NCBI GenBank assembly: GCA_964493715.1
Contig: CAZBPC010000002.1
Span: 64,001 to 128,000 of the forward strand
Source: an uncultured archaeon
Lineage (GTDB): Archaea > Asgardarchaeota > Lokiarchaeia > Sigyniarchaeales > SOKP01
DNA length: 64,000 nucleotides
Reading direction: 5' to 3'
Position 1 is the first letter of the stretch, and each line of letters opens with the position of its first letter. Below the pieces are notes generated by a model, which did not search any database, was not told where the DNA came from, and saw nothing but the letters and a program-made list of their open reading frames with translations. This document shows positions 17,845 to 56,217 of this stretch, in pieces. The position numbers were made by a program, and so were the translations under genes.

Positions 17845-18419
17845 TCATACTCAACCTCCTTAACACTATTGTATGCTTCAATAGCAACATCCATATTTTT
17901 CTTGCCTCGACTCTCTCCAAATTCTTTATATATAACTTTTTTCATTGTATCGATGTCATAATAACCCGTCATTTTACCAAATGCTCCTAACATGGGAATA
18001 TTTAGTATGGGTCCACTGGAATGCATGAAATTTTGTTTAATACATATACCAGTAGCATCTACTATGAAATATTTGACATTTTCAGGAAAATCACAGGTAT
18101 CAATTGGATTTTTGCTGTTAATAAGTAAAGTAACTCCACTTTTTATAGTGGCCATAATAGCAGGAATATCTAATAATGATGTATCAAAAATTATCATATA
18201 ATCGGGAGTTTTCACGCTATCAAAGGTCTTTATTTGTTTATTCCTCGATAACTTAGAAAATGCTTGAATGGGGGCCCCTCTCCGTTCTGCACCTATTATA
18301 GGGATTGCTATAGCGTCTTTAAATCCTTTTTCATAGGCAAGTTGTGCTAATAATTGGCTCGCGGTAATTGCTGTTTGCCCACCGCGACCATGGAAAGTTA
18401 CCTCTACAATTTTTTCCAT
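17841..18419 (-). CDS. porG: Pyruvate/2-oxoacid:ferredoxin oxidoreductase gamma subunit
   Basis: HGRGGQ, GAERRGAP; ATG 18419 chosen. Confidence 0.92.
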   Translation of the reverse strand: MEKIVEVTFHGRGGQTAITASQLLAQLAYEKGFKDAIAIPIIGAERRGAPIQAFSKLSRNKQIKTFDSVKTPDYMIIFDTSLLDIPAIMATIKSGVTLLINSKNPIDTCDFPENVKYFIVDATGICIKQNFMHSSGPILNIPMLGAFGKMTGYYDIDTMKKVIYKEFGESRGKKNMDVAIEAYNSVKEVEYE

Positions 18420-19652: not shown

Positions 19653-20609
19653 ATGGGTGCACTTTTTGGGCTTCATAATAATTACATGCCAAATAATAGG
19701 ATGTATAAAAATTGTAAAAAAATTATAGCTAAAAGTACTTTAGATGAAATGCGAGTTAATTTCAAAAAAAATATTGAAAATTACACAAAGAAATTTCCAC
19801 ATTTGGTAGAGTTATTATTATTGTTTCATTCTGAAATTTTGAAATTTATTAATGAATATGAGATAATTCTTCAACCAAAACCTACTCCAGATTATCAAAT
19901 GTTCAATCACCATCCTAATCTTAAAAGAGATTATTTTGAAATAATTGATACATATGAAAAAGCGTACTGGCTTGGATTTCTATTTGCTGATGGATGGATA
20001 GCAATAGAACATAAAAAATCTGGAGATTATTATCGAATGGGGCTCCAATTATCATATAAAGACAAGGATGTGCTTCAGAGGTTTTGTAAAAGTATTGGAT
20101 TAAATCCTAAATATATAAAAAATCGTCTTGTTGGAAGTGATTTTAGCACAAAATTATATCATATAGGTGAAATTAGATGGGGAGATCAAAAAATAGCTCA
20201 AGATCTTGTAAAATTAGGGATAATATATGGATACAGTGAACAAAAAGGAAGGCGCGTTAAAACCCCTAGACTTCCAATACTACAGAACCGAAAACTGATG
20301 TTGGCATTTTTATCAGGTTTCTATGATGGTGATGGCACTCTTGGATTTGATAAGAAGACAGGCAAAATTCGTCCAAGAATTGCCTCTTCTGAAATAGACT
20401 TTTTACATCAAATAAAGCAATATTTCGGAATAAAGTATCAAATTTCTACAACAGAAATGGTTAAATTTAATATAAGAACAGAGAAAATGGTTAATATAAT
20501 AGGTAGTAGACTAGATGTTGATAAAGAAATATTTAAAGAAATGTTAAGTATATTTAAGAATAGTCTTGAAAGAAAGAGAGTTCCAATAGATTTCTTTAAT
20601 GAAAAATAG
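19653..20609 (+). CDS. Free-standing LAGLIDADG homing endonuclease-like protein (two motifs)
   Basis: KAYWLGFLFADG and LAFLSGFYDGDG motifs; frame is open upstream to 19392 without a standard start codon; no intein motifs and no interrupted host gene. Confidence 0.82.
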   Translation: MGALFGLHNNYMPNNRMYKNCKKIIAKSTLDEMRVNFKKNIENYTKKFPHLVELLLLFHSEILKFINEYEIILQPKPTPDYQMFNHHPNLKRDYFEIIDTYEKAYWLGFLFADGWIAIEHKKSGDYYRMGLQLSYKDKDVLQRFCKSIGLNPKYIKNRLVGSDFSTKLYHIGEIRWGDQKIAQDLVKLGIIYGYSEQKGRRVKTPRLPILQNRKLMLAFLSGFYDGDGTLGFDKKTGKIRPRIASSEIDFLHQIKQYFGIKYQISTTEMVKFNIRTEKMVNIIGSRLDVDKEIFKEMLSIFKNSLERKRVPIDFFNEK

Positions 20610-20693: not shown

Positions 20694-21880
20694 ATGGCTA
20701 AAAATGTAAAGCGAATAGGAATTTTAACGGGTGGTGGAGTTTCATTTAAGATACATCTTTTTGAACCACAGACTGTCCCGGATTAAATTCAGTGATTTAT
20801 GGGATAATGCTGAAAGCTTACGATGCGGATGTAGAATGCGTAGGAATTCTAAAAGGATGGAAAGGTTTTGTTGAAAATTTAACGATTCCCTTAAACATTG
20901 CAGAACATGACGATCTTCATACCAAGGGAGGGACAATATTGTATACAAGTCGTACTAATCCATTTAAAGGAGTTGAGGCTAAAGAGGAAAAAGCAAAGCA
21001 ATTAACTAATCAATTCAATGTGTTAGGTATAGATGCATTAATTGCTATCGGTGGAGATGATACTCTTGGAGTAGCAGATACCATGTATAAAATTGCTAAT
21101 GCAAATGTAGTAGGGGTTCCAAAAACGATAGATAATGACTTGAAGGGTACTCATTACACTTTTGGGTTCTGGAGCGCTGTACAATTAGCTTCTAATGCGA
21201 TGGATAATCTCACAACAACCGCACGTTCACACCAGCGTGTTTTTGTAGTTGAGATTATGGGAAGAGATGCTGGTTTTTTAACCATGTATAGTGGAATTTC
21301 AGCAGGAGCTGATATAATATTGGTTCCTGAAACCCCCTTTAGTTTAGAAAAAGATATTGTTGACGTACTCAAAAAAAGAGCTAATGCTGGGTATAAATAT
21401 CACATCATTGCCACATCTGAAGGAGCTCATCCTCATATCGATTCATTAAATCGAGATTTCAAGACAATTTCAAAGGAAACAATTGATAAATTACCTAAAG
21501 ATACATTTGGGAATCCTTTATTAGCAAAGTTAAACATTTCACAAATTATCGTTGATGAATTAAATTTAAGAGACGATCTAAAAGAAGTATTTCTCCAAAA
21601 TGACGTCGAATTCGAATGCAGGAGCGTAGTTTTGGGACATACAATGCGAGCTGGAACACCTAATTCGTTCGATAGAATTTTGGGATTGAGATTTGGATTA
21701 GCAGCCATGAATATGGTTTTAGAGTCTAAATTTGGGAACATGGTTTCGCTTCAAGGTAATAAAATTAAAACCATGCCGCTTTCGGAAGGGGTAAAAAAGA
21801 AATATATTACCTCAGATAGTGATAAAATGGAATTAAGAGATTTACTTGTAAAAGTGCGGTATCTATCGAAACAAAAATAG
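20694..21880 (+). CDS. pfkA: 6-phosphofructokinase (PfkA family, probably PPi-dependent), join(20694..20739,20772..21880), 384 aa after splicing
   Basis: Exon 1 MAKNVKRIGILTGGG joins DCPGLNSVIYG to give the GGGDCPGLN motif; GGTILYTSR, GGDDT, PKTIDND, EIMGR, LGH..R. GGDD + PK signature suggests PPi use. Confidence 0.93.
20740..20771 (+). other. Putative bulge-helix-bulge (BHB) mRNA intron, 32 nt, in pfk
   Basis: Central helix GTGG(20734-37)/CCAC(20766-69); bulges AGT(20738-40) and AGA(20770-72); inner stems TTCA/TGAA and AAGA/TCTT; cuts AG^T and AG^A rejoin GGA G|AC TGT CCC. Confidence 0.85.
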
Positions 21881-24811: not shown

Positions 24812-26058
24812 ATGTTTACAAAAATAAAAAAAAATTATAAGAAATACCCAAATCCATTTAAAGTTCTGATTCTCGCCACATTCATCGATAGATTTGGAGG
24901 TTTTTTATTATTTCCCTTTTTTTCAGTGTCTCTTATAGAACATTTTAAAGTAACAATAATTGAGGTAGGATTTTTATTTTCTATATTTGCTGGTGGAAGC
25001 ATAATTGGTAGTACGATAGGAGGAGCATTAACTGATAAATATGGCCGTCGTTCGATGCTGTTATTAGGTTTAATTTCAAGTGGAATTGGTAGTATCTTAA
25101 TGGGTATAGTTAACGATTTATATCTTTTTTTATACTAGCAGCAGTTTTAGGCACATTAGGAGACTTGGGAGGTCCAGCCCGGCAAGCAATGGTTGTGGAT
25201 TTACTTCCAGAAGATAGACGAGCAGATGGATTTGGATTATTACGAGTGGCTGTAAATCTCGCAGCAGTAATGGGACCAATTCTTGGTGGAATGTTGCTAA
25301 ATAGTTCATATCTGTTCTTATTTATATTAGACGCAGTATGTCGCTTAATTACTGCCTTAATTGTATTCATAGTCATTCCAGAAACAAAACCTGAAAAACC
25401 AGAAGGCAAACTGGAAGAATCTGTAATGAAAACTATAGCTGGATATGAGGAGGTCCTTAAAGATGGATTGTATATATCATTTCTTTCCATTTCTGCTTTG
25501 ACGGTACTAGTTTACATGCAAATGAGCAGTACGTTATCGGTATTTTTGTGGGACGTGTACGAGTTTCCATTAAGCTTGTTTGGTGTGTTGTTGAGTATGA
25601 ATGCGCTGATGGTGGTATTCTTTCAGTTCTTGATAACTAGAATGACCGCAAAGTATGCACCCATGAAAATGATGGCTTTCGGCACACTTCTTTATATGAT
25701 TGGTTTTGGGATGTATGGTTTTGTCTCCTTACCATACTTGTTTTTCGTGGCTATGGCAATTCTAACAGTTGGAGAAATGATTGTAATACCCGTATCACAA
25801 GCTACAGTAGCTCATTTTGCTTCTGAAGATAAACGAGGGCGATATATGGCAGTGTTTGGTTTTCACTGGTCGATTCCAACCTTATTTGGAGTCTCAGCTG
25901 CTAGTTTTGTCTATATTTCGCTTGGTCCGAATTGGGTATGATATTTAGCTGGAATTTTATGCCTGATTGCTATCATCGGTTTTTTAATACTCAATGGTAT
26001 CGCAAAAGATCGTTTTTCGAATCCGACAGAAATTTTGGTTGAAAAATTTAGTGAATAA
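24812..26058 (+). pseudogene. MFS transporter, disrupted (frameshift plus in-frame stop)
   Basis: T7 run at 25125-25131 is one T short of joining DLYLF to FILAAVLGTLGDLGGPARQAM; TGA at 25939-41 (likely from TGG) is followed in frame by YLAGILCLIAIIGFLIL...EKFSE* to 26058. Confidence 0.8.
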
Positions 26059-54221: not shown

Positions 54222-55091
54222 TTAGTCAAATCGAAGTGAAATATCGACTTTTTCAGGAGGAAATTGGGTTAATTCACTGGAGCTTATAATATCTGGTTCA
54301 GCAATCACATAATCGACGAAATTTTCTAATGTAATACCTCCTGAAACTTCAATTATTACCATTCCACGAACTTTATTCCTTTTCAATGTACTAATTGCAT
54401 TCCCTACTTGATCAGGGGTCATATTATCGAGCATGATGATGTCTGCCCCTAATTTAGCTGCAATTAAAACATCTTCAACCCTTTCAATTTCAATTTCAAT
54501 TTTTTTTGTGAAACTAGCACTCTTTTTTATTTCTCTCATCATTTCCTCTATGTTTCCATTGTAATATTTTAAATGTGTATCTTTCAATAATATCATATCA
54601 TCGAGTGAAAAACGATGTGTTTCCCCTCCACCGAGAAAAACTGCTTTCTTCTCAAAAATACGCAATCCTGGAAGCGTTTTACGTGTACATGCTATCTTTA
54701 CAGCTTTTCCAGAATTTTTAATAATTTCTACATACTTACGAGTAGTAGTAGTTATGGCACTCATATGAGAGAGCAAATTTAGAGCTGTTCGTTCTCCAAA
54801 TAGTATTGATTGTGTTTCTCCTTTTAGATGGGCAAGGATATCTCCTTTCTTCACTCGATCTCCATCTTCTTTAACAAGGTTCACGGATACATTTAAAATG
54901 TCATATATTAAATTCAATTCTTCTAATCCACTAATATAACCACTGCTTTTTGCTATAACTTTTGCAGAACTAATTGCAATTTCGGGAATTATACTTGAAC
55001 TCACGTCACTGAAATGACAATCTTCTTCAAGAAATTCTCTAATTTTTCTCTCTAAAATTAAGTTATTAAACTTCACTTTGATGATCACCAA
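54222..55091 (-). CDS. nadC: Nicotinate-nucleotide pyrophosphorylase (carboxylating)
   Basis: ERTALN, TRKTLPG, HRFSLDD..LLKDTH, IMLDN, EVSGGI. Confidence 0.95.
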   Translation of the reverse strand: MVIIKVKFNNLILERKIREFLEEDCHFSDVSSSIIPEIAISSAKVIAKSSGYISGLEELNLIYDILNVSVNLVKEDGDRVKKGDILAHLKGETQSILFGERTALNLLSHMSAITTTTRKYVEIIKNSGKAVKIACTRKTLPGLRIFEKKAVFLGGGETHRFSLDDMILLKDTHLKYYNGNIEEMMREIKKSASFTKKIEIEIERVEDVLIAAKLGADIIMLDNMTPDQVGNAISTLKRNKVRGMVIIEVSGGITLENFVDYVIAEPDIISSSELTQFPPEKVDISLRFD

Positions 55092-55131
55092 CTGTAGTAT
55101 AATTATTATAGAATCAAATCTAATTAAAATT

Positions 55132-55788
55132 ATGCTAATGATTCAAGGTAATGAAGTATCTTTAGAAGCGGAGATTTTTCAGTCAGGAAATGAATTTAAC
55201 AATACTGTAGTCTTAATATGCCATCCTCATCCTCAATTTCTGTAGGGTTTCCTAAGAAAGGGAAAATATGGAGGATCGATGCATAATAATGTTATATCTT
55301 ATATTTTCAATCATTTAGTTAAAAATGATATCTCGTGTTTACGTTTCAATTTCAGAGGTGTAGAAAGATCAACTGGAAAACATTCAGGAGGAAGTGGAGA
55401 GTTATCTGATGTTCATAGTTGTATTACATTTCTCCAAAAAAGAGAGATACAAAGGATAATAATATGTGGGTATTCTTATGGTGCCGCTATCGGATGCTCA
55501 GCTGTAAATTTTTCAGAATCAATCATAGGATTCTGCGCGATTTCTTTTCCGTGGGATTTTATGGGAAAAAATTACAAAAATCTCTCACAAACTGAAAAAC
55601 CTAAACTATTTATTCAAGGGGATCAAGATTCTATTGCTAGTTTTGATAATTTCTTGTCTCATTATAATTTCTATAAGGAACCCAAAGAAAAAATTATTAT
55701 CAAGGGAGCTGATCACTTCTATTGGGGATTAGAAGGAATTTTAGCAGATAAAGTGGTTAAATTTGTAAAAAAGTTCAATCCATCTTAA
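55132..55788 (+). CDS. Alpha/beta hydrolase, join(55132..55235,55266..55788), 208 aa after splicing
   Basis: Exon 1 MLMIQGNEVSLEAE...VVLICHPHP joins QYGGSMHNNV to give the family motif CHPHPxxGGxMxN; LRFNFRGV, GYSYG nucleophile elbow, QGDQD, GADHF. Confidence 0.9.
55236..55265 (+). other. Putative bulge-helix-bulge (BHB) mRNA intron, 30 nt, with in-frame TAG
   Basis: Central helix TCCT(55230-33)/GGGA(55260-63); bulges CAA(55234-36) and AAA(55264-66); inner stems TTTCT/AGAAA and TAGG/CCTA; cuts CA^A and AA^A rejoin CCT CA|A TAT GGA GGA. Confidence 0.83.
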
Positions 55789-55818: not shown

Positions 55819-56217
55819 TTAAATAGTTGATAATTTCTCTAAATCTTGAAAACTGTTTTGTACAGCCCAATCAAGCAGTTGTTCATAATATCTCTCAATA
55901 TCATCCGATTCTGGTGGCTTAGAGAGAACAGCTAATAAAAATTGAGTTTTATCGTCTTTCATAATAATATTTCTGCAAATAATAAAATCATTAACATACT
56001 TGATCTTCAAACTTGCTAATAGAGATAAACTTAATTCTTCAGATGCTTTATATGCGGCATCACTCAGTAAGGATCCCATAGCCGCTATTACTCTTTCATC
56101 AACCTCATCTACTTTTTGTGAAGCTAAAACAAGTCCTGTAGAAGTAGAAAAAAGAGACGCTCGAAAATTACCATTATCATTGAGTTCTTTCAGAATCATC
56201 TCAAGTTTGCCAACCAT
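55819..56217 (-). CDS. Roadblock/LAMTOR-like domain protein
   Basis: LE.IL..L...FSTSTGLVLAS...IAAMGSLL..AA.KA..EL pattern. Confidence 0.75.
   Translation of the reverse strand: MVGKLEMILKELNDNGNFRASLFSTSTGLVLASQKVDEVDERVIAAMGSLLSDAAYKASEELSLSLLASLKIKYVNDFIICRNIIMKDDKTQFLLAVLSKPPESDDIERYYEQLLDWAVQNSFQDLEKLSTI

Follow-up and report, generated by a model that had tools for sequence, protein, structure and literature searches.

One of the questions raised by the stretch of archaeal DNA considered here is why a gene for a serine hydrolase, with its catalytic motifs intact, should carry a stop codon within its conserved N-terminal motif. The stretch, hereafter the window, comprises 64,000 nt of one contig of an uncultured archaeon (CAZBPC010000002.1, positions 64,001 to 128,000; G000:C2:64001-128000 in the coordinates used below), where G000 denotes a 3.68-Mb assembly of 160 contigs with ~31% G+C. 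The closest named relatives of the host are metagenome-assembled genomes of Promethearchaeota, i.e. Asgard archaea. The gene in question is an Abhydrolase_11 gene at window 55132-55788 on the plus strand, and it is interrupted by an insert that contains a single in-frame TAG. The answer favoured here, with a probability of about 0.85, is that the insert, at 55236-55265, is an archaeal bulge-helix-bulge (BHB) mRNA intron in a gene of the Abhydrolase_11 family of serine hydrolases.

What exactly is interrupted, and how sound is the remainder of the gene? The frame that opens with the ATG at 55132 reads ...VVLICHPHPQFL and is halted by the TAG at 55243-45, after which the same frame resumes as GFLRKGKYGGSMHNNV... 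and continues to the stop codon at 55786-88. The read-through product matches Pfam Abhydrolase_11 (PF20408) with 38.3 bits against a cut-off of 27 (E 1.5e-9). The catalytic motifs are represented by GYSYG and by the Asp and His of GADHFY; GYSYG, D166 and D194-H195 are invariant in an alignment of orthologs (A1), and 67 of the 68 spliced products retain GYSYG. The insert itself is 30 nt, or 10 codons, in length, and its excision gives ...CHPHPQ|YGGSMHNN. Exon 1 would then run from the ATG at 55132 to 55235, the second base of the 5' bulge described below, encoding M...VVLICHPHP together with the CA of a Gln codon, the intron from 55236 to 55265, with its TAG, and exon 2 from 55266 to 55788, encoding the third base of the Gln codon, YGGSMHNN..., GYSYG and GADHFY up to the stop codon. 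The original prediction, which was made from the letters of the window, had claimed both that removal of 55236-55265 restores the conserved N-terminal motif of the family and that the downstream catalytic Ser, Asp and His motifs are intact, and both claims hold.

The annotation of such genes in databases follows the interruption. The two nearest database proteins, P0002 (171 aa) and P0003, are truncated or mis-started gene calls, and the nearest database matches to the intron-bearing alleles in general are truncated gene calls. Of the 120 database proteins returned, none that is both contiguous and full-length exceeds 80% identity to an intron-bearing allele, a result that is uninformative on splicing.

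The insert in orthologs and relatives

Does the insert encode part of the protein? An exact gap of 10 residues between HPHP and Q[F/Y]GG is found in all 17 full-length orthologs of alignment A1, which is the exact 30-nt gap that had been forecast for them, and the nine intron-less alleles of the genus are likewise contiguous (...CCN CAR TWY GGN GG...). Orthologs encoding about 10 extra residues, which had been named in advance as the finding that would speak against an intron, were not found.

The distribution of the insert was followed in 60 related genomes. Within the genus, 17 genomes give a match with one internal stop (TAA, TGA or TAG) that is ~30-39 nt longer than the stop-free matches, of 597-606 nt, in 11 other genomes; three more give a match split between frames, and one (G014) gives a partial match with a TAA. 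The 24 genomes beyond the genus have matches without internal stops, though these are merely 33-46% identical. When 30 loci of the genus are read at the DNA level, 21 carry the insert at exactly the same site and nine are uninterrupted. The Pro codon of the second His-Pro pair is CCT in 21 of 21 intron-bearing alleles of the genus versus 5 of the 9 that lack the intron.

The insert is also carried by 45 metagenome contigs from many projects, retrieved with a search pattern based on the conserved ends. The pattern of insert plus motif fits 65 of 75 loci, corresponding to 45 distinct alleles with inserts of 30-34 nt, of which 33 nt is the commonest length (33 alleles), followed by 31 (five), 30 (four), 32 (two) and 34 nt (one). 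None of these inserts can be translated as part of the hydrolase: in eight of the 45 alleles the length cannot be divided by three, so that the frame is shifted, and in the other 37 there is always an in-frame TAA, TGA or TAG. Around the insert, all 54 assembled alleles with the intron have ATG at the start of exon 1, and exon 2 is open over 170-177 codons wherever the contig is complete.

The ratio of nonsynonymous to synonymous substitution rates (dN/dS) in the spliced frames has a median of 0.20 over 426 ungapped pairs of equal length, a set that contains one misregistered pair (L001-L003, 1.40) and is superseded by an analysis of 60 codons anchored at HPHP, in which the median is 0.16 over 1065 pairs. 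For the gene of the window against the allele L002 the ratio is 0.046 at a dS of 0.46. The 28 codons of exon 1 taken separately give a median of 0.42, with values below 1 in 90% of 1152 pairs. Both exons are under purifying selection. Judged by these alignments, the insert is no local mutation: it is conserved though never translatable.

The bulge-helix-bulge structure

What, then, do these inserts share? The core of the structure is a central helix of 4 bp, including one U-G pair, whose 5' strand, UCCU (55230-55233), belongs to exon 1, within its second pair of His-Pro codons, and whose 3' strand, GGGA (55260-55263), is intronic; each strand is invariant in 47 of 47 alleles. A 3-nt bulge sits 3' of each helix strand. 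The 5' bulge, CAA (55234-55236), holds a predicted cut at 55235|55236 that is frame-restoring in every allele, and the 3' bulge, AAA (55264-55266), holds a predicted cut at 55265|55266; in some alleles it is AAG, whereupon the junction codon becomes CAG and Gln is kept. Between the bulges lies an inner hairpin (55237-55259), in which TTTCT (55237-41) pairs with AGAAA (55255-59) and TAGG (55243-46) with CCTA (55251-54) around the loop GTTT (55247-50). Outside the bulges an exon-exon helix is formed between the His-Pro codons (55223-55229) and the Tyr-Gly-Gly codons (55267-55276), through the pair A55229-T55267 and through ATCCTC (55223-28) with GAGGAT (55271-76). All these elements are on the plus strand, and the frame, the TAG, the pairings and the bulges had each been proposed at these positions from inspection of the window, and every one of them is there. 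The core by which BHB elements are recognised, namely 4 bp of central helix and, on opposite strands, two bulges of 3 nt, is found in 47 of 47 alleles, and the inner flanking helix beside the 5' bulge, with its helices of 5 bp and 4 bp, lies above the 2-bp criterion of the BHB class.

This geometry agrees with the boundaries that the orthologs define. In the 21 intron-bearing alleles of the genus the UCCU/GGGA pairing is possible in each, with a 5' bulge of CAA or GAA and a 3' bulge of AAA or AAG, and cuts after the second base of each bulge restore HPHP[Q/E][Y/F]GG in 21 of 21, whatever the length of the intron. Scored as a 4-bp central helix with at least two G-C pairs, 3-nt bulges and at least four inner pairs, the core geometry occurs at 17,902 of ~3.5e8 combinations of position and length in the genome, or ~5e-5 for each; only four registers yield the ortholog-defined deletion, and the BHB geometry falls on one of them. 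When the window's own allele is folded without constraints, the minimum-energy structure recovers two of the four pairs of the central helix along with the outer helix and the two inner ones, and for three of the 21 alleles of the genus such a fold is exactly this BHB.

The pairings are also borne out by substitutions. When the structure is mapped onto 47 distinct rows aligned with MAFFT (A2), 92% of the cells are paired, and changes on both sides of a pair are seen at 9 of the 19 pairs, in 57 cells; with the partner columns slid by 1-3 positions, no more than 11 such cells are obtained. The covarying pairs are seven of the nine pairs of the inner hairpin and two of the outer helix, the latter (9-61 and 12-58 in A2) with two-sided changes in 9 and 5 rows and unpaired in 13 and 12 rows, respectively.

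A comparison with the curated RNA families of Rfam, which include the group I and group II self-splicing introns, gave no relevant match and one weak, unrelated match outside the gene (E 0.09), and a self-splicing intron can be rejected in any case, as 30 nt is far too short. The weak match is to the Na+ riboswitch aptamer, at window 55825-55872 on the minus strand, in the 3' end of a Roadblock/LC7-like gene; with 20.9 bits, where the gathering score is 40.5, it is probably due to chance.

Proposed mechanism and the splicing machinery of the host

How might such an insert be removed? In the proposed mechanism, UCCU (55230-33) of the pre-mRNA would pair with a GGGA that lies close to the intron's 3' end (55260-63), and the resulting 4-bp helix would be flanked by the bulges CAA and AAA, by the hairpin within the intron and by an exon-exon helix of Pro (CCN) and Gly (GGN) codons. 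A two-subunit splicing endonuclease, EndA, would cut after the second base of each bulge (55235|55236 and 55265|55266), and the ligase RtcB would join the exons, completing the Gln codon as CA|A, restoring the motif HPHPQYGG and giving an enzyme of 208 residues. Cleavage and ligation at this site are inferred, and the released intron is probably circularised.

The genome encodes candidates for both enzymes. EndA is represented by two paralogs, with PF01974 matching twice (102 and 68 bits) in genes of 207 and 205 aa; the better of the two matches the crenarchaeal EndA chain PDB 3p1z_B at 1e-36, and the second is more divergent, with 1a79_A as its best match (9e-21). Passages of PMC5829648 describe the Asgard EndA as a two-subunit enzyme with an L1 loop that is tied to a broad substrate range, and the two paralogs fit the two-subunit enzyme assigned there to Asgard archaea. 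The RtcB ligase family (PF01139) matches at one locus, and this gene is itself interrupted.

A separate observation concerns the tRNA genes of this host. ARAGORN reports only 27 of them, 12 with a called intron, in a genome rated 100% complete, and many tRNA genes are probably too interrupted for detection. The low count agrees with passages of a preprint on heavily interrupted Asgard tRNA genes (bioRxiv 10.64898/2026.10.13.758758).

Similar inserts in other genes

Is the hydrolase gene alone in this? At least seven such inserts are present in six genes of G000: those of the hydrolase, pfk, rtcB, nadE, a GHMP-kinase gene and, twice, an EF-2-like gene. All seven are 29-32 nt long with a G+C content of 0.17-0.38, and a search for a shared sequence family among the introns with blastn-short found none.

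The pfk insert, which the original prediction had put forward as a parallel case, is real. It occupies window 20740-20771 (+), in a gene that starts with the ATG at 20694, and consists of 32 nt that shift the frame between GGG and DCPGLN, a site that is contiguous in 19 genomes of the genus. Its BHB has a GUGG/CCAC helix, the bulges AG|U and AG|A, a hairpin of TTCA/TGAA plus AAGA/TCTT and a weak outer helix. In one relative, G025, this position in pfk is occupied by an insert of 31 nt whose central helix has changed in a compensatory manner (GUGG/CCAC versus GCGG/CCGU). In five others (G009, G005, G029, G032 and G021; loci L130, L131, L132, L137 and L138) pfk is contiguous at GGG|DCPG, yet the matches are 30-36 nt longer, with two stops elsewhere, and this pattern suggests that the pfk genes of other species may hold an intron at a second position.

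The rtcB insert lies on the same contig upstream of the window (G000:C2:12136-12164, minus strand; L078/L145), and its 29 nt contain a stop and shift the frame. It surfaced independently through a split Pfam match, in which profile positions 1-47 and 48-426 are found in different frames ~29 nt apart. The structure is a textbook hBHBh', with a UUGG/CCAA helix, the bulges AU|A and AG|A, an inner helix of 9 bp and two outer G-C pairs, and with the insert removed the junction reads ...GGVGY|DINCG..., the same as in intron-less relatives. Within the 36 genus genomes searched it is found only in G000 and G001, whose introns differ by one base although the exons show many synonymous differences.

The remaining four inserts are on other contigs. 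That of nadE (G000:C39:8748-8777, plus strand; L142) is 30 nt long, contains a stop and was found by a scan for BHB elements that join open reading frames (ORFs); the alignment to the Pfam NAD_synthase domain passes through it unbroken, and among the matches in the genus, of ~700-735 nt, only those of G000 and G016 are of 735 nt with one stop, the others being of 699-711 nt with none. The GHMP-kinase (mevalonate-kinase-like) gene has a stop-containing insert of 30 nt with BHB geometry after codon 15 (G000:C21:19953-19982, minus strand; L141). Its junction is ...ILFGE|HFVVYG..., which we take to be a contiguous mevalonate-kinase motif. The two inserts of the EF-2-like gene, both on the minus strand and ~95 nt apart, are one of 30 nt before EEEQARGITI (G000:C76:5211-5240; L143) and one of 31 nt inside AHID|HGKTT (G000:C76:5334-5364). 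The latter, which came to light when the gene was inspected, has a mismatch in the central helix, because of which strict scans miss such cases.

Whether these examples stand for a larger set is a matter of even odds: the protein-coding genes of the genus may harbour a whole population of BHB introns of ~30 nt, with gains and losses from species to species. Of the genomes of the genus in which the hydrolase gene is found, about two thirds have its intron, and the rtcB and nadE introns are each present in only 2 of the 36 searched. Such a population would mean that mRNAs are interrupted, and matured without a spliceosome, in prokaryotes that are the nearest kin of eukaryotes.

Two further observations were made in the course of this survey. 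The scan list includes a candidate of 30 nt with a 10-bp hairpin (G000:C53:2033-2062, minus strand), just before the C-x-G-C-G motif of an oxidoreductase-like gene. Directly upstream of pfk, at window 19653-20609 (+), there is an ORF of 318 aa with two LAGLIDADG-like motifs (...GFLFADGW... and ...GFYDGDGT...), which we take to encode a homing-endonuclease-like protein.

Alternative explanations

The strongest competitor to an mRNA intron is a split gene, in which the insert stays in the message, the TAG ends a peptide of 37 residues and the body of the enzyme is made from a conserved Met (the ATG at 55279), with the GGAGG of the Gly-Gly codons as its ribosome-binding site; a variant would regard the gene as a pseudogene. 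This has some local appeal, given that (i) the ATG follows the insert by four codons and is where gene callers start (as in P0002), and (ii) the GGAGG lies 5 nt upstream of it. Such a product, however, would be without HPHP-x-x-GG and ~37 residues that hardly vary across the family, and exon 1 is open, begins with ATG in every one of the 54 alleles and is under purifying selection. A split gene also leaves unexplained the conserved and covarying BHB, the restoration of the frame by structure-defined cuts at insert lengths of 30 to 34 nt, and the inserts of rtcB and pfk, where there is no start codon close downstream. The pseudogene variant is excluded by the dN/dS of 0.16-0.2 across deep branches. 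Taken together, the split gene in either form is improbable.

A slightly smaller chance attaches to programmed translational bypassing of the type known from phage T4 gene 60, in which the ribosome, aided by a hairpin, would slide over ~30 nt and resume at the Tyr codon. The short coding gap, the stop soon after the take-off region and the stable hairpin give the locus a superficial likeness to bypass elements. Bypassing in gene 60, though, requires matched take-off and landing codons, and here they are unmatched in 47 of 47 rows (CAA/GAA versus AAA/AAG), as they likewise are in rtcB (TAC versus GAC) and in pfk. Nor does bypassing need a pair of 3-nt bulges exactly 4 bp apart, yet that feature is invariant.

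The TAG might also be read as an amino acid, through pyrrolysine or other recoding, or simply read through, with 10 extra residues in the protein. The window's own allele, whose insert is divisible by three and has a single TAG, would permit this, but homologous inserts have TAA or TGA instead, or shift the frame with 31, 32 or 34 nt, and the extra residues are encoded by no ortholog; the idea has next to no chance of being right. An artefact of sequencing or assembly, which a metagenome-assembled source in 160 contigs might bring to mind, is just as implausible, as a 932-nt contig from a separate sequencing run (X3) shows 0 differences over 54800-55636, with the insert and its TAG included, and the insert is present in 21 genus genomes and 45 metagenome contigs. 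Thus pseudogene, stop-codon recoding and assembly error are in effect excluded because untranslatable alleles are conserved, because the exons are under purifying selection and because an identical contig was recovered from another run.

Evidence that tempers the intron interpretation

A number of results weigh against an mRNA intron or reduce the force of the evidence for one, and they concern expression, the structure, the sampling and the genome-wide scan. With respect to expression, the RNA runs X22 and X23 cover only 55958-56200, in the neighbouring gene, and X24 covers nothing, so that the hydrolase gene is represented by neither spliced nor unspliced transcripts. With respect to the structure, the local fold energy is ordinary (z = -0.74, with 46 of 200 shuffles equally stable), and the central helix, being invariant, is without covariation at the hydrolase locus. 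As to sampling, the alleles are related, and the shuffle control for the two-sided changes, in which 0 of 500 column shuffles scored as high, therefore overstates their significance; the 45 metagenome contigs were picked by a pattern that requires the conserved ends, and neither prevalence nor conservation at those positions can be tested from them. Finally, the outer helix of the window's own allele has just one A-U pair beside the 3' bulge, after which it continues either with two mismatches and then 3 bp or with a 3-nt offset and then 6 bp. Other alleles form the outer helix in the ungapped register with one mismatch, and the predicted motif of the hydrolase is best called relaxed (HBh'-like); the strict hBHBh' form would have an outer helix of 2 bp or more immediately beside the 3' bulge.

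The genome-wide scan gave equally restrained results. A loose version, combining a BHB with the joining of ORFs, returned 4700 matches versus 4747 for a decoy of mirror topology, and a filter on codon score brought no gain (813 versus 792). In a tighter version 259 candidates were set against 178 for the mirror decoy and 211-250 for decoys with wrong bulge sizes, which is no clear excess; five wrong-bulge-size decoys were run, of which 2_4 and 4_2 duplicate 2_2 and 4_4 and hence are not separate controls. At 29-33 nt there were 31 candidates against 16-24 in the decoys, an excess of ~10 that roughly matches the six cases recognised. The scan is underpowered because junctions between tandem genes dominate its background.

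Several of its candidates were rejected. At window 25134-25165 (+), in a gene for an MFS-type transporter, the 'intron' is coding in the other frame and lies beside a run of seven T, which looks like a frameshift or homopolymer error and no intron. Candidates in small GTPase, actin-like and FAD-binding genes were set aside since the 'intron' encodes obvious protein sequence, and the 23 nt at window 20783-20805, inside pfk, are a false positive of the scan.

History of the probable hydrolase intron

How long has the hydrolase gene carried its intron? A quick maximum-likelihood tree was built from 68 products, spliced or contiguous, of which 54 come from intron-bearing and 14 from intron-less alleles, a split that is not a measure of prevalence, as the metagenome rows were chosen by the intron pattern. 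Parsimony places six changes of intron state on this tree, and its well-supported branches force at least two. Since branch lengths of 0.2-0.6 lie between the lineages that bear it, the intron is old within the genus and has been lost or gained more than once.

Significance and comparison with known systems

Introns of the BHB type in coding regions have so far passed for an oddity of cbf5, a single crenarchaeal gene. If the interpretation given here is correct, Asgard archaea splice mRNAs by means of the tRNA-splicing machinery, at several loci of one genome. The differing presence of introns among close species would, moreover, provide a tractable system in which to study how introns come and go in the lineage closest to eukaryotes. 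There would also be consequences for annotation, in that standard gene callers would truncate or split such genes, with P0002 and P0003 as mis-calls, and because of this the Asgard gene inventories (PFK, RtcB, NadE and an EF-2 paralog) would be partly mis-annotated. The intron in rtcB has a further implication, as on its account the mRNA of the ligase would need the ligase in order to mature. This would constitute a built-in positive feedback that leaves the cell dependent on inherited protein, and it raises a testable question of self-dependent expression.

A search of full-text articles, mostly outside the subscription journals, turned up no account of BHB introns in protein-coding genes of Asgard archaea. 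The hydrolase intron would therefore be, in the literature searched, the first mRNA BHB intron in Asgard archaea, and an example of the cbf5 type in a new phylum. For the cbf5 pre-mRNA intron of Crenarchaeota, reportedly described in Watanabe 2002, splicing has been shown experimentally, whereas for the hydrolase it is inferred from sequence. According to passages of PMC7714728, crenarchaeal cbf5 was up to 2020 the only coding-region mRNA BHB intron reported, besides a 5'-UTR (untranslated region) intron in Haloferax. The likeness to the cbf5 intron, as described in parts of Yokobori 2009 (PMC2738675), lies in a BHB within a protein-coding gene, in the presumed cut by a hetero-oligomeric EndA, in a lineage-specific occurrence with presence and loss among relatives, and in the gene-prediction errors that follow; the pattern of loss or gain of the hydrolase intron resembles the one described there for cbf5. 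The differences are the Asgard host, the serine hydrolase gene and the presence of at least seven inserts in six genes of one genome.

Within the same clade, the non-canonical BHB introns of Asgard tRNA genes treated in passages of bioRxiv 10.64898/2026.10.13.758758 share the motif and the presumed enzymes with the hydrolase intron but are found in tRNAs, whereas the latter is in an mRNA. In those passages of the preprint mRNA introns are unmentioned, the word 'mRNA' occurring 0 times and 'protein-coding' once, in an unrelated sense. The BHB intron of Haloferax volcanii HVO_1309, as presented in passages of PMC7714728, likewise makes an mRNA the substrate of the splicing endonuclease, but it lies in the 5' UTR and, unlike the hydrolase intron, leaves the reading frame uninterrupted.

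Beyond the archaea, the nearest parallels differ in mechanism. Eukaryotes have a spliceosome-independent splicing of mRNA in HAC1/XBP1, where a short, frame-changing intron is removed by a protein endonuclease and the exons are joined by an RNA ligase, which in animals is RtcB. The endonuclease is IRE1, which recognises two stem-loops, and the process is regulated by stress. HAC1/XBP1 splicing is mentioned in a passage of PMC13149111. The hydrolase intron is like it in being a short mRNA intron that would be spliced without a spliceosome, and unlike it in having a BHB instead of two stem-loops. The bypass of T4 gene 60, for its part, resembles the hydrolase case in that a brief stretch within the frame, containing a stop codon and a hairpin, goes untranslated; the hydrolase insert is set apart by the absence of matched take-off and landing codons and by the conservation of its BHB geometry.

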